From the sequence record OR352955.1: a DNA stretch of 64,000 nucleotides, one strand, 5' to 3'. Made by a program: the position numbers and the translations under genes. A model generated the notes under the pieces. It ran no database searches and was not told the origin of the DNA. It worked only from the letters and a program-made list of their open reading frames with translations. This stretch comes from Escherichia phage AV125. Shown here piece by piece: positions 9,797-18,791 of this stretch; the stretch's first letter is position 1, and every line of letters starts with the position of its first letter.

Positions 9797-10090
9797 ATGA
9801 TGAACATTACTTTAGCAACTAAGAATATTTCTGAAACAATTAACGGTTTTGGTGTGATTGTAGCCTTGCACGGTAACAATGAGAAATGGTTGGCTTCTTT
9901 TGAAGAGGATCGTCAACACAACATTATTTTAGATGCCCCTATAAAAGTTATGCATATCGTTGGTGAAAGCAAAGTGCTCACTTCCTCCCGTTCAAAAGAA
10001 CAAATTACAAATGAATTAGTAAAACTGCTTGACAATGTTCTTAACATGTTTGATAATGCACCCATCGATACAAAACGTGTCTTAATGTGA
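9797..10090 (+). CDS. hypothetical protein (97 aa)
   Basis: GAGGTAGA before ATG; first gene of plus-strand block. Confidence 0.55.
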   Translation: MMNITLATKNISETINGFGVIVALHGNNEKWLASFEEDRQHNIILDAPIKVMHIVGESKVLTSSRSKEQITNELVKLLDNVLNMFDNAPIDTKRVLM

Positions 10091-11886: not shown

Positions 11887-12243
11887 ATGAAAAAACTAAT
11901 CTTAGCCACATTGCTGGCTACCGTAAGCTTCACCACTTACGCTCAAAAATTTGTAGCAGTTAAAACAGATATTGGTAAAGATGTTGTGATCACAGGCAAC
12001 AAGTTTTACTATACACCTGGGAATGGTGTTCTAGAAGAGTGTAAAGATGTTGAGGCATATACGGGAAAAGAAGATAACACGGAACGTCCTTTTTATTCGA
12101 TTATAGCTACTTGCAAAAATGAAATAGTAGCTATTAAACAATACAAAGATGCCCCTGGAGGAGAATACTTATTAGTCAAGAATATTAAGAGTGAAAAAAC
12201 TGCAAAGTTTACAGTAATTATTTTAAAAGGAGAAACGTTCTGA
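11887..12243 (+). CDS. predicted secreted protein (118 aa)
   Basis: Start ATG 11887 gives signal-peptide-like MKKLILATLLATVSFTTYAQ. Confidence 0.5.
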   Translation: MKKLILATLLATVSFTTYAQKFVAVKTDIGKDVVITGNKFYYTPGNGVLEECKDVEAYTGKEDNTERPFYSIIATCKNEIVAIKQYKDAPGGEYLLVKNIKSEKTAKFTVIILKGETF

Positions 12244-13382
12244 TGAAATACACTATTTTTGGAGATGTAGCTGTTGTAAATAAGGAATATGGCGTTGAAG
12301 CTAATAAACTTCCTGCTGGAGTTTGGGTTGTCAACTGCGATCCGCACGGTAACTACTCTTTAGTGCGTGGTGAAAGTTTCTCTCTTCCGAACACTCTTTA
12401 TGGGGAAACTAAAGATCGCGCCGCACATGTTATTAAAACATTTGCTCGTCGTAGTAAAGAAGGTAAAAATACTGGGGTGTTACTGACAGGGACAAAAGGC
12501 AGTGGTAAGACGATGTTAGCTAAACTAATTAGCATGTCTCTAATGTCCACAGAAGGTTTAGGTATTCCAACCATTTTGGTTACACAGCCTTACACAGATG
12601 CTGGCTTCTTAGAATTTATGAGTAAAATTACAGATCGTGCTGTTGTTTTATTTGACGAATTTGATAAAGTGTACGCTAAGAAAGAAGATCAGGAAGCACT
12701 GTTGACCTTGTTGGATGGAACAGGAAGTGGGAATAAACTTTACATCCTCACTAAAAATAGTGGTTATATCTCGGAATATTTTGTAAACCGTCCTAGTCGT
12801 ATCTACTACAGTTTCAATTACGATAAACTGTCTAGTGAAACTATGTTAGATTACTTGGATAAGAACTTGGTAAATAAAAAGCACGTAGATAACTTCCAAC
12901 GTTTATGGGATGTTAGCACAGAGTTGTCTTTCGATGTTATTCAAGGCATTGTAGAAGAATTGAATTTCTATCCAAAAATGACTTTTAAAGAATGTCTTGA
13001 AATGATGGGTATTTCTTTAGGGAACGATGCTAAATGGAATGTGGCTTCTATCGTAGCTAATGGCAAAACCTTGAAGGTGAATTGGATCAATAACTGGCAC
13101 GACTTCACCCCTACTAAGTTTTTGTCGGGTGCTTGTTCCCTGAACATCTATCTACAAAGTTTGAAAGATGATGAAGTGGAAGCAATGGAAACCAACAGTT
13201 ATGTTATCCTGGATGAAGATGGTGATCCACATATTGATCTATGTGCAACGGCTGATGGTCTAACTTGTGATCTGATTGAAGGTGGTAAGATTCTGGTTAT
13301 GAGCACTACACCAGGAAACACTTTGCGAGTGGTGCTGGAGCCTGTAACACAACGTTCCACTACACTTGGTAGCGTGTTCTAA
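12243..13382 (+). CDS. AAA-family ATPase
   Basis: 379 aa; Walker A GTKGSGKT, Walker B VVLFDEFD. Confidence 0.7.
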   Translation: MKYTIFGDVAVVNKEYGVEANKLPAGVWVVNCDPHGNYSLVRGESFSLPNTLYGETKDRAAHVIKTFARRSKEGKNTGVLLTGTKGSGKTMLAKLISMSLMSTEGLGIPTILVTQPYTDAGFLEFMSKITDRAVVLFDEFDKVYAKKEDQEALLTLLDGTGSGNKLYILTKNSGYISEYFVNRPSRIYYSFNYDKLSSETMLDYLDKNLVNKKHVDNFQRLWDVSTELSFDVIQGIVEELNFYPKMTFKECLEMMGISLGNDAKWNVASIVANGKTLKVNWINNWHDFTPTKFLSGACSLNIYLQSLKDDEVEAMETNSYVILDEDGDPHIDLCATADGLTCDLIEGGKILVMSTTPGNTLRVVLEPVTQRSTTLGSVF

Positions 13383-13470: not shown

Positions 13471-14931
13471 GTGCCAAAAATAGTCACTTGGGAACAATAT
13501 AAAACAGATATAAAACAAGCTTATCAAGGTAAGTCTTGGACTGTTGTAGATTATATTGAGCCGTGGAACGGCAATAAAACTAAACTTAGATGCATCTGTG
13601 CTCTGCATGGAGAATGGAAAACAACAAGCATAAATACCGCTAAACTAGGGAGGGGTTGTCCAGAATGCGGTAGGGAGATTATAAGTAAAGCAGTATCTAT
13701 AAACAAATCAAAAACCTGGGAGCAATATAAAGAAGAAGTGCAAACCACTTACAATCAGGCAGGTAAGTTTTGGACTGTTACAGGATGGCACGGAGAATGG
13801 AAAGGATGGAATACTAAACTGGTTTGTTGTTGTGCTTTACATGGGGAGTGGAGGTCTACTTCTATATCTTCTGCGAAAAACGGGAGTGGATGCAGGAAGT
13901 GTATGGGAGAAGCAAACAGAGAAAGAACATCGATTGCATGGGAGAAACATAAAGAAGAAGTAGAAGAAGCTTATAAAGAAAAACCCTGGATTGTTAGAGG
14001 CTATGTGGAACCGTGGAACGGTTCCCGCACTAAGTTGATTTGTGAGTGTAAGGTTCATGGTCAATGGTGCACTACCACTGTAAACAGTGCTAAACAAGGG
14101 ACTGGATGCTACAGTTGTCAAAGAGAAATGACGAAACAAAGGAATACAATGGAGGATAAACAACATGTTGAAGATTTTATAAAAGCTTGTCCTGATAATG
14201 TAGAGCGTAAATATTATCGTAGCGATAGAGTAGATAGATTAGGTCGTCAGGTTTACTGGATTGTAGAATGTCCTATATGTGCAGAGGATGATTATTGTAA
14301 AGAAGGCTTATGCGATAATAAATTTGAGATGAAGATGAGTCATTTGAAAAGGGGTGGCCTTCCTTGCCGTTGTTCTAAATATTATCATTACACTCCTGAA
14401 CAATGGGCCTACCGTATGACCAAAGCTTGCCAGGAACGAGGGGATCAATTTATAGGATTCATTGATAAGGTAAGCAATAACAGCAAGTTTAAATATCTAT
14501 GTAGGGAGCATGGAGAGCAAACGATCACACCTACCGATTATCTCAATGGGAAAGGTTGTCCAGGCTGTAAGAACAGAAATATGCAAGAATTTTACATCAA
14601 TATTATTCTTGATGAGTACGGAGAAGACACGGGAGCTTACAAGTTGGGGATTGCAAAGGACAGTGATATCAGGATCAAAGGGCAGAATGCAAACAACAAT
14701 TACTCTATGCGCCGTATAGCATTGTTCGATCTGCCGTCCTACCAAGCTTGCAGGGCGTTAGAGAGTAAGCTAAAGTCTAAGACTGATCAGATTCTACCGT
14801 CTATTGGCTGTGTAGAACGCTTGCACATGAAAGATGGTCATAGTGAAACCTTCCTGCGCGAGGATTTGGCTATCGTCTTAAGTGCTATCAACCAAGCAGG
14901 TGGAATAATGAGAGAGGAGGAAACATGTTAG
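13471..14931 (+). CDS. zinc-ribbon tandem-repeat protein
   Basis: 486 aa; four N-terminal repeats of ~75 aa each with EPWNG..TKL..C.LHGEW..TS....AK.G.GC..C; cysteine-rich C-terminal half. Confidence 0.6.
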   Translation: MPKIVTWEQYKTDIKQAYQGKSWTVVDYIEPWNGNKTKLRCICALHGEWKTTSINTAKLGRGCPECGREIISKAVSINKSKTWEQYKEEVQTTYNQAGKFWTVTGWHGEWKGWNTKLVCCCALHGEWRSTSISSAKNGSGCRKCMGEANRERTSIAWEKHKEEVEEAYKEKPWIVRGYVEPWNGSRTKLICECKVHGQWCTTTVNSAKQGTGCYSCQREMTKQRNTMEDKQHVEDFIKACPDNVERKYYRSDRVDRLGRQVYWIVECPICAEDDYCKEGLCDNKFEMKMSHLKRGGLPCRCSKYYHYTPEQWAYRMTKACQERGDQFIGFIDKVSNNSKFKYLCREHGEQTITPTDYLNGKGCPGCKNRNMQEFYINIILDEYGEDTGAYKLGIAKDSDIRIKGQNANNNYSMRRIALFDLPSYQACRALESKLKSKTDQILPSIGCVERLHMKDGHSETFLREDLAIVLSAINQAGGIMREEETC

Positions 14932-15303: not shown

Positions 15304-15483
15304 ATGGCACGTTTAGCAGATCATGAAATCTTTAAACCTATTCTGAACCACTATGATGAACTTAAAGCAGTGTTGGATTGTTATAGAGAGGATGAAGAAC
15401 GTTTGGAAGTCAATCTTAAGATAGTTCTGATGAAAGCTTTTCAAGACGGGCAAGCTAAAGTTTTAGAAGGCATGAAAAAATGA
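15304..15483 (+). CDS. hypothetical protein (59 aa)
   Basis: Track ORF 15268 shortened to ATG 15304 after AAGGAG. Confidence 0.4.
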   Translation: MARLADHEIFKPILNHYDELKAVLDCYREDEERLEVNLKIVLMKAFQDGQAKVLEGMKK

Positions 15484-16022
15484 GAATAACTGATGAATAT
15501 GTATTCTTCTTTTCACATAAAGATGTGTTTAGTAATTGGTATATTGCACCCTTTACAGAAACTGAACCAGGTTACAATGAGACTTTCTGTTGTGTTGAGC
15601 AATATATGATGTGGCGTAAGGCTTTGCTGTTCAAGGATCATGCGATTGCAGCAGCTATCCTTGATCACTCAACTATACGTGACAACGAGAGGAAACAAGC
15701 ATACTACAAACGTATGGGTCGAGCGGTATCTGGTTTTAATAATGATATGTGGGAAGAGAACCGTGAGCGTATTGTTATGCGAGGCTTATGCTTGAAATAT
15801 GTACAGAATCCAGATTTGTATGCAGACTTACACCTTTACCAATACAAAACGTTTGTTGAAGCAAGTCCTTACGATAAGGTTTACGGTATTGGAATGGGAA
15901 TGTATGAACCAGGGGTGCTAAACCCTGCTACCTGGAAAGGGCAGAATCTTTTAGGCAAATATCATAATAAACTGATCGAAATACTTTTCCCAGACAAAAT
16001 ACCGCAAAGACGATATTTGTGA
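15480..16022 (+). CDS. NADAR-family (YbiA-like) protein, putative ADP-ribose/N-glycoside hydrolase
   Basis: 180 aa; FFFS..SNW...PF...EQYMMWRKALLF.D....VMRGLCLKYVQNP.L...L..T....LVEASPYDKVYGIG pattern matches NADAR/YbiA fold as remembered. Confidence 0.6.
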   Translation: MRITDEYVFFFSHKDVFSNWYIAPFTETEPGYNETFCCVEQYMMWRKALLFKDHAIAAAILDHSTIRDNERKQAYYKRMGRAVSGFNNDMWEENRERIVMRGLCLKYVQNPDLYADLHLYQYKTFVEASPYDKVYGIGMGMYEPGVLNPATWKGQNLLGKYHNKLIEILFPDKIPQRRYL

Positions 16023-16265
16023 TATTTTAACTTTTTTCATTTTTAGAACAAAGGTGTCACTTTGTAGCACAGAAATAAGGCTCCTACAGCACCGTAGAGA
16101 GCCTGTTATTTTGTCCTATACAAACCCTTGTCTTTTTCAGTTTGCATCACTAAGATTCGATCTGAGTGGGTTCCTGAAGGTTTACCAATAAGATTAAAGG
16201 TTATATCAAATTCCCACTATCTTTTATCTCAAAAATCCCTCAAATTATTTAAACTTTTTAAGAAT

Positions 16266-16450
16266 TTACAAAAGTGAAAGTTGAAAACCAAAATTTAAAG
16301 TTTAGGAAAATTATCTTAAAATGTCAGATACAAAACAAAACTCAAAAGTCAAGGAAAATTTTAAAAATTTTGCGCGCCCACAGTATTTAAAGTTTTTTTG
16401 CTTTTACAAAAATGAAAGTACAAAAGCAAAATTTAAAGTTTACAAAAATT
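16266..16450. repeat. AT-rich direct repeats (iteron-like), 2 full copies of ~48 bp plus partial copy
   Basis: TTTACAAAAgTGAAAGT...CAAAATTTAAAGTTTAggAAAATT at 16266-16313 and 16403-16450; partial AAAGTCAAGGAAAATTTT at 16346-16364. Confidence 0.6.
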
Positions 16451-16465
16451 TTTATGCAGGTGAAA

Positions 16466-16580
16466 ATGAGAAGAGTTCTCATATGGAAATGCAAATGATA
16501 ATGATTCGCATTTAAGTTTATAAATGAGATTGATTCTTATTTAATAAGGTAAATGACAATCATTCTCATTTAGAGAATGA
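16466..16580. promoter_or_regulatory. cluster of operator-like inverted repeats built on half-site ATGAGAA/TTCTCAT
   Basis: ATGAGAA-gag-TTCTCAT (16466-16482); 27-bp near-palindrome AAATGCAAATGATAATGATTCGCATTT (16487-16513); CATTCTC-attta-GAGAATG (16561-16579). Confidence 0.5.
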
Positions 16581-16799
16581 CGCGCAGGGGCGGTGTTTGT
16601 CTCGCGCTCCCGTGTCCCCTCGCCATGTAATAAGAATAACAGATCCAGCCAGGAAAGCAAGCGATTATTTTATCTTTACATTTCTTTACAAATATATAGC
16701 ACCCAGCCTACCGGCGATCAACCTTCCAACCAGTGCCCCCTGGTATGTTAGCCCCGCCTTTACGCCGTGGGGTGGCGCTTCCTCTTCTGTATGTAAAAC

Positions 16800-16828
16800 A
16801 GTATAAGCCCGATCCCTGGGCTTGTCAA
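16800..16828 (-). promoter_or_regulatory. sigma70-type promoter on minus strand, no obvious downstream ORF
   Basis: rc reads TTGACA (16828-16823) - 17 nt - TATACT (16805-16800); reads leftward into GC-rich segment. Confidence 0.45.
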
Positions 16829-16830
16829 GA

Positions 16831-17097
16831 TTATTTTTTGTTTTCTTGCCAGGATAGGACACCTAACCAAAAATACATATCGCCCCGCGCCCCTGGTGGT
16901 ATCTTGCTTTCCCCGCCGCCACTGCAAGCCCATAGATAACCATTTGCGAACGTATCAAAATGATCTATCTCTTCCACCTTATGATCGCCCAGGTTGAGAA
17001 CGGTTTCAACCTTTAAGCCCGTTGCGCTTGCTACCTGGTGCACCGTGCCGCCTTGCCAGCCCAATGAGTGCATAAGGTGTAATGTAGTATTTGTCAT
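16831..17097 (-). CDS. small hypothetical protein (88 aa) inside a GC-rich insert, antisense to flanking genes
   Basis: ORF track; GC-rich codons (GGC, GCG, CAG) unlike surrounding AT-rich genes. Confidence 0.4.
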   Translation of the reverse strand: MTNTTLHLMHSLGWQGGTVHQVASATGLKVETVLNLGDHKVEEIDHFDTFANGYLWACSGGGESKIPPGARGDMYFWLGVLSWQENKK

Positions 17098-17205
17098 GAT
17101 ATCGCCCTTTCTTTGTTGTGCGCCCTGGTTGGCGCGGTAGAAAGATAATAGCCCTTTTCTTTATATATAGCAAGCAAAAAGAAAATAAAAAAGATTGAAA
17201 AATGG

Positions 17206-17263
17206 TTGACGTTAACCAGGCGGCGGCGTAGTATTCATCTTGTAGGGCGGCAATGGTGCCGCT
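17206..17263 (+). promoter_or_regulatory. early promoter + leader stem-loop cassette 1
   Basis: TTGACG 17206; -10 TAGTAT 17229; hairpin GCGGCA-atgg-TGCCGC 17246-17263. Confidence 0.55.
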
Positions 17264-17283
17264 CACTATTTGGAGTTAAGATC

Positions 17284-17481
17284 ATGGCAACATTGCACAT
17301 TGTGGCGAAAGCTGGACAAATCAACGTAGTGGTAAACGGTTTTACTGAGTTCAGTCACCCCCAGGATGATCATGAAACGGTTTTATCTTTCATTGATTCC
17401 CTGTTAGAAATGGGAGTCATTACAGAAGACCAGCACGCTACAAAATGCAAGCGCGTTAATCAAATTGCAGGAATAGAATAA
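17284..17481 (+). CDS. small early protein (65 aa)
   Basis: Start moved to ATG 17284 after GGAG; track start 17206 is TTG of -35 box. Confidence 0.5.
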   Translation: MATLHIVAKAGQINVVVNGFTEFSHPQDDHETVLSFIDSLLEMGVITEDQHATKCKRVNQIAGIE

Positions 17482-17487
17482 AAAGTA

Positions 17488-17547
17488 TTGACAACAAACA
17501 ACAACCTGATAAGATGTATCACATAGGGCGGCGGAATGGTCCACCGC
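17488..17547 (+). promoter_or_regulatory. early promoter + leader stem-loop cassette 2
   Basis: TTGACA 17488; TAAGAT 17510; hairpin GGCGGCGGA-atgg-TCCACCGC. Confidence 0.55.
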
Positions 17548-17572
17548 TCACAACAGAAGAGAGATTATCATC

Positions 17573-17845
17573 ATGGCATCATATAGCGCAACAATGATCG
17601 TAGCTGGCACCACTGGTAAACCTATGCGCGGTGGCGGATCTTTCGCTAATATCAATATTGACGGGCGTTTATCCCTGGACGCAGCGATCACCGTGGCGCG
17701 GGAAACATTTAAGAAAGAATGTAAATTCAATAAACAAGATTATCTCGGTTTTGCTATTGAAAAAACCGCGCGCTTTGTTGATTATAAAAGCCCGAAAATG
17801 GTTGACACTACATTAAAAGCGCAAGATGTAGCGTTTTTGTTTTAA
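17573..17845 (+). CDS. small early protein (90 aa)
   Basis: ORF track; AGAGAGA upstream. Confidence 0.5.
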   Translation: MASYSATMIVAGTTGKPMRGGGSFANINIDGRLSLDAAITVARETFKKECKFNKQDYLGFAIEKTARFVDYKSPKMVDTTLKAQDVAFLF

Positions 17846-17848
17846 GGC

Positions 17849-17904
17849 TTGACATTAACGAATAATTTGTTAATATGTTACATAAAGCGGGAATAGTTCC
17901 CGCT
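17849..17904 (+). promoter_or_regulatory. early promoter + leader stem-loop cassette 3
   Basis: TTGACA 17849; TAATAT 17871; hairpin GCGGGAA-tag-TTCCCGC. Confidence 0.55.
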
Positions 17905-17921
17905 ATTTGTAAGGTGGTAGA

Positions 17922-18179
17922 ATGTTTTACATCAAATTAAAAGGTCACGTGATCGCGTTCAAAGATAACGCTTTTTACAGATTAGCAAAATATGCGTTAA
18001 TACATCCCCACTATGTTTATATAAGGGGGCGTGATGAAATAAATATCTTTGATCAAACAACATGCGAGAACATCGAGATCCGCAAGGTTGGCGTACGTGA
18101 TTATCGTACATCTTTCTACCCTTGCAAGGATTCAGCAAGTCTTTTTAAAGTATGCCAATTGTTGAAAAAAGGTGGTTAA
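17922..18179 (+). CDS. small early protein (85 aa)
   Basis: ORF track. Confidence 0.5.
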   Translation: MFYIKLKGHVIAFKDNAFYRLAKYALIHPHYVYIRGRDEINIFDQTTCENIEIRKVGVRDYRTSFYPCKDSASLFKVCQLLKKGG

Positions 18180-18180
18180 T

Positions 18181-18738
18181 ATGGGCCGCGAATATGTGAT
18201 CCAGTCTTGGGTAAAACATGAAGCAGATGATCCGCGCATCATTCCCGATCATCTTATCGATGAATCCACGGGATATAGTGGTGAGCAAATAGGTAACAGA
18301 TTAGCACGTAGTAACGGCAACGTAAAAGCGCGTTATGTGCGCCCTGGCTGGCTGGCAAATGGTAACGCTGATTTATCCAGTGCGGAAGATGCGAGCGACG
18401 GCGCGAAAGATAATCCTTTGTACAAAGTTGATCCAGCTTTTCGTGTCCTGGATGAATACCCCAGCAAGATAGCGGCGCTCGATCAGGCCCTGGAAAGTAA
18501 GCGCATCACCTGGACCGCTTACAACATGGCAAAAAACGTACTTGATAGTAAATTGATTCAAGCTGAAAGAAAATTAGCCAAAATTGCAGCCATAGCCCAG
18601 GAGGAAGACGAGGAGACAACGGAAGAGGAAGAGTACGAAGAGATCCCGCCGTTGTTGTGTGTTGATGCTTTTCCTGATTATCAGCCGACAGAGGAAGAAA
18701 AAAGGATCGCACTAGAAAACTTTGAAAATAGTCTTTGA
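18181..18738 (+). CDS. hypothetical protein (185 aa), acidic C-terminal tail
   Basis: Track ORF 18172 (GTG) shortened to ATG 18181 after AAGGTGG. Confidence 0.5.
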   Translation: MGREYVIQSWVKHEADDPRIIPDHLIDESTGYSGEQIGNRLARSNGNVKARYVRPGWLANGNADLSSAEDASDGAKDNPLYKVDPAFRVLDEYPSKIAALDQALESKRITWTAYNMAKNVLDSKLIQAERKLAKIAAIAQEEDEETTEEEEYEEIPPLLCVDAFPDYQPTEEEKRIALENFENSL

Positions 18739-18791
18739 CATATCGCCGCCACTGGCATAATATTTACCACGTAGGGCGGCAATGGTGCCGC
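18735..18791 (+). promoter_or_regulatory. early promoter + leader stem-loop cassette 4
   Basis: TTGACA 18735; TAATAT 18758; hairpin GGGCGGCAATGGTGCCGC. Confidence 0.55.

Follow-up and report, generated by a model that had tools for sequence, protein, structure and literature searches.

Why does an Escherichia coli phage carry a stand-alone gene of the NADAR family, and against what is its product directed? The question is raised by Escherichia phage AV125 (sequence record OR352955.1), from which a stretch of 64,000 nucleotides, here called the window, was analysed. An original prediction, made from the letters of this stretch alone, had placed a phage-encoded NADAR protein at 15480-16022, next to a control region, and had proposed it as a plausible counter to ADP-ribosylating defence systems. 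An open reading frame (ORF) of 180 amino acids (aa) on the + strand spans exactly these coordinates:

15480..16022, + strand: NADAR gene, 180 aa, ATG start, TGA stop; predicted DNA guanine-N2-ADP-ribosyl glycohydrolase

We regard this ORF as the Phapecoctavirus ortholog of AdfN^Bas60, a phage protein with a published activity against the toxin DarT1, and we consider it likely that its product is an ADP-ribosyl glycohydrolase serving as an orphan antitoxin that lifts the DarTG1 block.

The NADAR identity of the protein is confirmed by profile matches, a structure match and the predicted fold, all of which agree. The Pfam NADAR domain (PF08719, DUF1768) is found with E=3.4e-35 and 122.1 bits (gathering cutoff 35.1), and the match spans residues 11-161 of 180 and profile positions 3-154 of 163. 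The domain-level model TIGR02464 (riboflavin biosynthesis intermediates N-glycosidase) scores 114.9 bits (cutoff 73.7), PHROG 1017 ('unknown function') is matched at E=3.8e-51, and the Phytophthora nicotianae NADAR (PnNADAR, structure 8BAU) is found at E=1.2e-12 from the single sequence and at 4e-35 from the family profile. An AlphaFold2 model, for which the input was a 78-sequence family alignment (A2), has a mean predicted local distance difference test (pLDDT) score of 95.5 and a predicted template modelling (pTM) score of 0.89. When the model was compared with 350,542 PDB chains by Foldseek, the only significant matches were 8BAU (template modelling (TM) score 0.79, probability 1.00) and E. 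coli YbiA (2B3W, TM 0.69); the third-best match was insignificant (E=1.6). The model shows the alpha+beta architecture of NADAR, in which small beta-hairpins flank a helical core. It follows from the profile matches and the predicted fold that the protein is a complete single-domain NADAR and not a chance ORF.

The most informative relative is a protein of known activity. According to Johannesman et al. (Nat Commun 2025, PMC11825919), a NADAR was found in the BASEL phages Bas60-62 and named AdfN^Bas60. In E. coli, expression of this protein by itself suffices to neutralise the toxicity of DarT1, i.e. it acts without other phage factors, and when supplied in trans it brings RB69, T5 and Bas25 back to full titre on DarTG1 hosts. 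It is without effect on DarTG2, which modifies thymidine. Experimental proof of such anti-DarTG1 activity exists only for the Bas60, Bas32 and T4 proteins. The paper refers to Bas60-62 as Vequintavirinae; the BASEL paper calls them phi92-like and places Bas63 in Felixounavirus. In GenBank, PaulScherrer (Bas60) is classed as Justusliebigvirus, Stephanstirmvirinae, i.e. as a member of the sister genus of Phapecoctavirus. We located the AdfN^Bas60 gene in PaulScherrer as bas60_0111 (QXV83846.1), where it is labelled 'putative YbiA-like N-glycosidase', and the same gene is present in the EmilieFrey and JohannJBalmer genomes.

The AV125 protein and bas60_0111 are 57% identical over 172 residues (E=9e-68), and the two loci share the same gene order: an AAA-ATPase (64% identity), a CapR/Zn-ribbon protein (35%), the NADAR and then a long ORF-poor stretch. 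Since each gene is present in a single copy, lies in a syntenic position and has the other as its closest phage relative, the two are best regarded as orthologs. Moreover, both products appear to be orphans of about 180 aa that come from phages of the same subfamily, have a Glu-type active site and carry a Tyr in place of PnNADAR W133. They differ in that AdfN^Bas60 has a 6-residue N-terminal hairpin insertion (NNSITS), Y93 where the AV125 protein has F86, and another C-terminal tail. In Phapecoctavirus, moreover, NADAR is separated from the Zn-ribbon gene by two additional small ORFs of 121 aa and 59 aa. The orphan status rests on a domain scan that covered the immediate neighbours: no ADP-ribosyltransferase (ART), Macro, Nudix, SLOG or NAD-salvage domain was found there. 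As no ART or toxin domain lies among the neighbours, the NADAR would be an orphan and not one half of a toxin-antitoxin pair. It is mainly this orthology to a protein that rescues phages from DarTG1 that supports the counter-defence role put forward in the original prediction. By orthology we infer that the AV125 protein shares the activity of AdfN^Bas60 and that countering DarTG1 is what it mainly does when the phage infects in nature.

The active site was compared residue by residue. In 8BAU, ADP-ribose (ADPr) is contacted by E43, K50, K75, R79, Y84, W89, R93, E125, D130 and W133 (Schuller et al. 2023, PMC11543638), and in E. coli C7 DarG1, as mutants revealed, the residues corresponding to K50 and E125 are indispensable and the E43Q equivalent inactivates the protein (PMC11543638). 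The positions were mapped by script on an alignment of the AV125 protein with the 8BAU segment, AdfN^Bas60, YbiA, T4 gp30.3 and four homologs. The ten contact positions are, in the same order, E40, K47, K77, R81, F86, W91, R95, E127, D132 and Y135. Eight of the ten are identical to PnNADAR and two are aromatic-for-aromatic replacements, i.e. F86 for Y84 and Y135 for W133; the Tyr at the latter position is shared with AdfN^Bas60, which is experimentally active. As a control, the mapping recovers E36 and K43 of T4, the residues mutated in PMC11825919, and places T4 H123 at the Glu position, where T4-type phage NADARs are known to carry a His (PMC11543638). The contact residues are encoded in three short segments:

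15597..15620, + strand: codons of the E40...K47 motif (VEQYMMWRK), with E40 at 15597-15599 and K47 at 15618-15620
15708..15764, + strand: codons K77 to R95 (K77, R81, F86, W91, R95), predicted by mapping to make the pyrophosphate and adenine contacts
15858..15886, + strand: codons E127 to G136 (EASPYDKVYG), the putative distal-ribose/catalytic motif

E40 and K47 correspond to E43/K50 of PnNADAR, E88/K95 of E. coli C7 DarG1 and E36/K43 of AdfN^T4, and E127, the equivalent of PnNADAR E125, is the residue that discriminates between the families. A2 shows no variation at E40, K47, W91, E127 and D132, nor at G80, A128, S129, P130 and G136, and conservation of K77 and R81 is 90% or more. All ten contact residues are also identical in the diverged Phapecoctavirus alleles. 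In other words, the alignment that the original prediction had called for found no loss of catalytic residues, as all ten positions are kept or conservatively replaced, and by this comparison the active site is intact.

The NADAR superfamily has been divided into general NADARs, YbiA-type proteins, T4-type phage NADARs (with His at the discriminating position) and DarG1 antitoxins (with Asp and an N-terminal extension) (PMC11543638, PMC12945103). In alignments the AV125 protein is 18% identical to gp30.3, 30% to YbiA and about 28-33% to PnNADAR, and the family-profile search ranks 8BAU (4e-35) before YbiA (1.5e-16), with the DarG1 structure 8BAT undetected at E<=10. The Glu at position 127, the missing N-terminal extension, the low identity to gp30.3 and YbiA and the profile ranking together point to the general NADAR family, and on these sequence features we assign the protein to the Glu-type general NADARs. 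The characterised members of that family, i.e. PnNADAR 8BAU, Streptomyces coelicolor SCO5665 and the sigma70-operon-linked NADAR of E. coli (PMC11543638, PMC11125620, PMC12945103), are its closest structural and profile match, sharing the E...K motif, the K/R phosphate clamp, the E-x4-D motif and the Glu at the discriminating position. Those named are cellular proteins with unlike or undefined roles, whereas the AV125 protein is phage-borne.

The other three families resemble the protein in part. AdfN^T4 (gp30.3) is also a phage-encoded orphan that removes guanine-ADPr and counters DarTG1, and its E36/K43 match E40/K47, but it has H123 instead of E127 and lacks the region of D132 and Y135. With these differences and the 18% identity, the AV125 protein is not a T4-type phage NADAR; the PADLOC and other profiles that match it do not match gp30.3. 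PMC11825919 states that AdfN^T4 requires a Tevenvirinae context for full activity while AdfN^Bas60 does not. The T4-type and AV125-type NADARs were acquired independently. DarG1 (8BAT; the NADAR of E. coli C7) shares the superfamily, guanine-N2-ADP-ribose hydrolysis and, as predicted for the AV125 protein, DarT1 detoxification, but its residue at the E127 position is an Asp (D171 in E. coli C7), it has an N-terminal extension, and it is encoded beside DarT1. The AV125 protein carries Glu127, its domain starts at about residue 11, it has no adjacent ART and its family profile does not detect 8BAT; it is thus no DarG1. YbiA (2B3W) has the NADAR fold, likewise carries Glu at the position that separates the families, and hydrolyses guanine-ADPr (G-ADPr) and cytidine-ADPr (C-ADPr) in vitro, but it has A75 and P84 where the AV125 protein has K77 and F86, it belongs to a LexA-controlled host operon and it gives no DarT1 protection in vivo (PMC11125620). 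The TIGR02464 score (114.9 against a cutoff of 73.7) and the Glu would suit a YbiA-type protein, but the profile is nearer to PnNADAR and there are no rib genes nearby. Moreover, PMC11825919 places the Bas60 clade among the non-YbiA bacterial NADARs.

Models built for defence systems were also compared. NCBIfam NF053876 ('NADAR family anti-phage protein', DS32) gave 15 bits against a cutoff of 240, i.e. the protein is not a member of that family. In the PADLOC scan no DarG-type model matched, and the sole match was PDLC04643 (PDC-M42C) at E=3.6e-35. This model also matches YbiA (9e-16), so that it is a generic NADAR model and uninformative on function. PDC-M42C is a component of a candidate anti-phage defence system, and NADAR domains therefore occur on both the defence and the counter-defence side; automated defence finders could mis-flag the AV125 gene through this model.

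The gene is firmly a phage gene, as originally claimed: the 1.5 kb around it are 99.6-99.9% identical to Phapecoctavirus genomes of about 150 kb, including vB_EcoM-Ro121lw, phAPEC8_ev052 and ESCO13 (phAPEC8-like; Stephanstirmvirinae). Its host phage is a virulent myovirus. The gene was found in 70 records, at full length in 69 of them (the flanking ATPase gene in 64), with one copy per genome, and it is effectively core to Phapecoctavirus. The record vB_EcoM_EP57 (OR544956, 130.7 kb) carries only the 3' 43% of the gene. The ratio of nonsynonymous to synonymous substitution rates (dN/dS) is 0.13 in comparison with the two most diverged alleles, those of tuntematon and nepoznato (about 88-89% nucleotide identity; dS 0.48-0.53, dN 0.064-0.071), and the gene is clearly under purifying selection. 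The closest relatives without a phage label come from Burkholderia and Myxococcota; they are stand-alone proteins of about 158-162 aa with 42-48% identity. The Burkholderia pseudomallei homolog (42-43% identity; contigs L008/L009/L010, 5001-5480) is flanked by phage-like genes, its neighbours including many small hypotheticals, a Gp3-like gene (PF18897) and DUF7696. The 'bacterial' clade nearest to the AV125 protein may thus be partly prophage-borne, and because of these phage-like surroundings nothing independent can be learned from the Burkholderia homolog about a role in cells.

We propose the following course of events. A host that carries DarTG1 would sense the infection, DarT1 would ADP-ribosylate guanine N2 in the phage DNA, and replication would be blocked. 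The phage NADAR would bind the ADP-ribose, with K47, K77 and R81 directed to the phosphates, F86 and W91 contacting adenine and ribose, and E40, E127 and D132 contacting the distal ribose. It would then hydrolyse the N-glycosidic bond between ribose and guanine, so that unmodified DNA is restored and replication can proceed. Members of all four NADAR families strip guanine-ADPr in vitro (PMC11125620, PMC12945103), and the system to be countered occurs in E. coli, e.g. in C7 and in enterotoxigenic E. coli (ETEC) O36:H5 (PMC11125620).

Several points weigh against this proposal. As many as 43% of the residues differ between the AV125 protein and the tested AdfN^Bas60, and activity in vitro is no guarantee of protection, since one study found YbiA and T4 gp30.3, both of them active in vitro, unable to rescue cells from DarT1 (PMC11125620). 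AdfN^Bas60 was tested ectopically, and no deletion in a native Stephanstirmvirinae phage is described in the accessible text of PMC11825919, so that the natural selective pressure is unproven. The gene is core to the genus although DarTG1 occurs only sporadically in E. coli, a pattern that may indicate a broader or a different main substrate. It is also to be noted that TIGR02464, a model for a riboflavin-intermediate N-glycosidase domain, is above its cutoff too.

The most credible rival follows from the point on substrates. The protein could be a nucleic-acid de-ADP-ribosylase of broader or different range, whose main substrates would be cytidine-ADPr or RNA guanine-ADPr made by ARTs other than DarT1, such as YarT/ScARP-like toxins, undiscovered ART defences or toxins delivered by competitors; the anti-DarTG1 effect would then be one facet or a side activity. 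We consider this rather unlikely, and it could hold alongside the DarTG1 role. It would suit both E127 and the grouping with the general NADARs (8BAU 4e-35, YbiA 1.5e-16, 8BAT undetected), because the NADAR and YbiA members tested so far act on C-ADPr as well as G-ADPr, in DNA as in RNA, and the DarG1 and T4-type proteins on G-ADPr only (PMC12945103), and it would also suit a gene that is core across the genus while DarTG1 is sporadic. An activity against other ART defences is, moreover, suggested by the authors of PMC11825919. On the other hand, E. coli is not known to have an ART defence that targets cytidine, and the sole in vivo phenotype reported for the ortholog is anti-DarTG1. A related proposal, namely that the Stephanstirmvirinae NADAR is a broad eraser of guanine and cytidine ADPr in DNA and RNA that acts against several ART defences or toxins, some of them perhaps still undiscovered in enterobacteria, is a tentative one that we find possible if somewhat doubtful; if true, it would explain the core status of the gene despite the sporadic occurrence of DarTG1.

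The remaining explanations take the protein away from nucleic acids. A hydrolase of soluble ADPr compounds, which would degrade low-molecular-weight immune signals or toxic by-products derived from NAD+ or ADPr (of the cADPR type or from RNA repair) and not DNA adducts, was predicted for most phage NADARs by comparative genomics in 2022, where the presence of NADAR in 27% of myoviruses and in more than 48% of medium and jumbo phages was taken to suggest a general role (PMC9503650); the free ADP-ribose bound in the NADAR pocket of 8BAU (PMC11543638) would agree with it. We find it quite improbable, as the immediate neighbours scanned hold no NAD+-salvage, SLOG, Macro or Nudix gene, the NADAR literature cited here does not report cleavage of a signalling nucleotide, and according to PMC11825919 it is DNA modified by DarT1 on which the ortholog acts in vivo. 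A YbiA-type housekeeping role, i.e. an N-glycosidase acting on reactive riboflavin intermediates or damaged ribosyl metabolites in the infected cell, we hold for very improbable indeed. The TIGR02464 score, the TM of 0.69 to YbiA and the 'YbiA-like' label that the BASEL annotators gave to the Bas60 ortholog speak for it, but TIGR02464 works at the level of the domain and recognises the fold that these proteins share, the identity to YbiA is 30%, the family profile is far nearer to PnNADAR, no riboflavin genes lie nearby, and the Bas60 clade falls outside YbiA in PMC11825919. Finally, there is next to no chance that the protein is GTP cyclohydrolase II (RibA). That name stands in many Phapecoctavirus and Justusliebigvirus records (such as OM386659, OR062526 and MT496970) and has no other support. 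It is refuted by the domain content, as the Pfam scan at E<=1 gives NADAR alone, the fold search gives NADAR structures alone, and a NADAR that covers residues 11-161 of 180 leaves no room for a RibA domain. The label probably spread from RibA-NADAR fusions ('ribA/ribD-fused uncharacterized protein').

The preferred reading, i.e. an orphan antitoxin against DarTG1, is not in itself new, because phage NADARs, including the ortholog, were published as anti-DarTG1 factors in 2023-2025. What appears to be new here is a currently mis-annotated member in Phapecoctavirus, which by its sequence extends the 2025 discovery to a second genus. In all 60 of the 70 matching records that were listed, most of them Phapecoctavirus, the gene either carries no label or goes under 'hypothetical protein', 'COG3236' or the incorrect 'GTP cyclohydrolase II'; in Justusliebigvirus the labels range from 'YbiA-like N-glycosidase' to 'DNA methyltransferase'. 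A fitting annotation for the gene is 'NADAR-family ADP-ribosyl glycohydrolase, probable anti-DarTG1 factor (AdfN-like)', and the value of this is mostly one of curation. phAPEC8-like phages are often isolated and are considered for therapy against avian pathogenic E. coli (APEC), Shiga toxin-producing E. coli (STEC) and extended-spectrum beta-lactamase (ESBL) E. coli, and a probable DarTG1 counter-defence helps to predict their host range on DarTG1-positive strains. The AV125 protein and AdfN^Bas60 also form a natural pair, 57% identical, that can be used for mapping the determinants of in vivo protection by NADARs and for asking whether Glu-type phage NADARs have a wider base specificity.

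The setting of the gene gives some indication of how it may be expressed. The features at its two ends are:

15465..15483, + strand: translation-initiation context, read directly from the sequence
16078..16113, + strand: terminator-like hairpin about 55 nucleotides (nt) 3' of the stop, assessed by fold free energy (dG) and shuffles

A Shine-Dalgarno-like AGAAGG at 15465-15470 lies 9 nt 5' of the NADAR ATG, and the ATG shares the letters ATGA (15480-15483) with the TGA of the preceding 59-aa ORF (15304-15483), which belongs to phrog_22330 and is annotated in related records. The overlap and the upstream AGAAGG lead us to propose translational coupling within an operon; in other words, the arrangement suggests that the NADAR gene is coupled to the 59-aa ORF. 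The NADAR is the final ORF of a + strand block that begins just past a strand switch at about 9.7-10.0 kb, the start of the block being taken from the annotation of the near-identical record phAPEC8_ev052. At the other end, the hairpin at 16078-16104 has a 10-bp stem with one bulge and a 6-nt loop and is followed by UUAUUUU. Its fold has a dG of -16.9 kcal/mol with z = -3.87, and none of 200 shuffles was equally stable. The hairpin of 16078-16113 is absent from the list of the consensus terminator scanner; it is a plausible intrinsic terminator that would mark the probable 3' end of the transcription unit.

The claim that the gene lies next to a control region holds only in part. The gene does border an ORF-poor stretch of 1.26 kb, but the divergent promoter region of its block lies about 5.5 kb upstream, at about 9.7-10.06 kb. 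The consensus promoter scan gave a sigma-70-like site with an 11/12 consensus match at 10029-10057. The promoter scan as a whole (33 sites against 25.5 in shuffled sequence) and the terminator scan (12 against 7.1) were barely above chance and were not used as evidence.

Further genes in the surroundings are:

12243-13382, + strand: AAA-type ATPase (phrog_2376), with weak Pfam AAA and STAND NTPase matches
13471-14931, + strand: CapR/Zn-ribbon protein of 486 aa, with five CapR-homology repeats (PF21817, 99 bits) and a match to phrog_681 'endonuclease'
16831-17097, - strand: 88-aa ORF (phrog_19316) within the part of about 50% GC, without a Pfam domain

Related records name the product of 12243-13382 'FtsH-like protease' or 'ATPase or Zn metalloprotease', yet an ATPase domain is all that was detected in it. 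In the protein of 13471-14931 no nuclease catalytic domain was found at Pfam E<=0.01 and PHROGs E<=0.001, i.e. only the CapR repeats and two PHROGs named 'endonuclease' were matched. The length of this gene varies from 999 to 1461 nt among the Phapecoctavirus records.

Directly 3' of the NADAR gene lies the ORF-poor stretch (16023-17283), the best conserved part of which is 16359-17253. It is conspicuous that this stretch has 84.6% nt identity to Bas60 over 915 nt, in comparison to 35-64% for the flanking proteins. An AT-rich segment at 16240-16550 (24% GC) contains direct repeats of 72 nt (two copies) and 29 nt (three copies), and an inverted repeat of 23 nt is found at 16521-16572. The stretch may hold an origin or an RNA that has escaped annotation, or it may serve as a regulatory hub. 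The tRNA and Rfam scans (at the gathering threshold, and in E-value mode on 15950-17350) gave nothing but a chance microRNA match on an inverted repeat, and folding of the GC-rich part on both strands gave z-values of -0.5 and -1.5, which does not support a structured RNA. An origin of the stretch of about 50% GC from the host was rejected, since a search of 5,426 E. coli genomes gave no match to it.

The 88-aa ORF is present in 150 phage records and is unannotated in some deposited ones. It has an RBS-like (ribosome-binding site) AAGGG upstream and a terminator-like hairpin at 16823-16805. Between Phapecoctavirus and Justusliebigvirus its product shares 97-100% aa identity, yet the version in Phapecoctavirus nepoznato is only 72% identical, a pattern of conservation that suggests module exchange or very strong constraint. 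Beyond it, at 17284-18740 on the + strand, lies an array of small ORFs of 65-188 aa, all of them assigned to PHROGs of unknown function and separated by gaps of mostly about 75-95 nt. Two ORFs of the array have a promoter-like site in front of them (17488-17515 and 17849-17876), each scoring 10/12 and carrying an extended -10 TG, and by its layout the region looks like an early-gene or 'moron' array.

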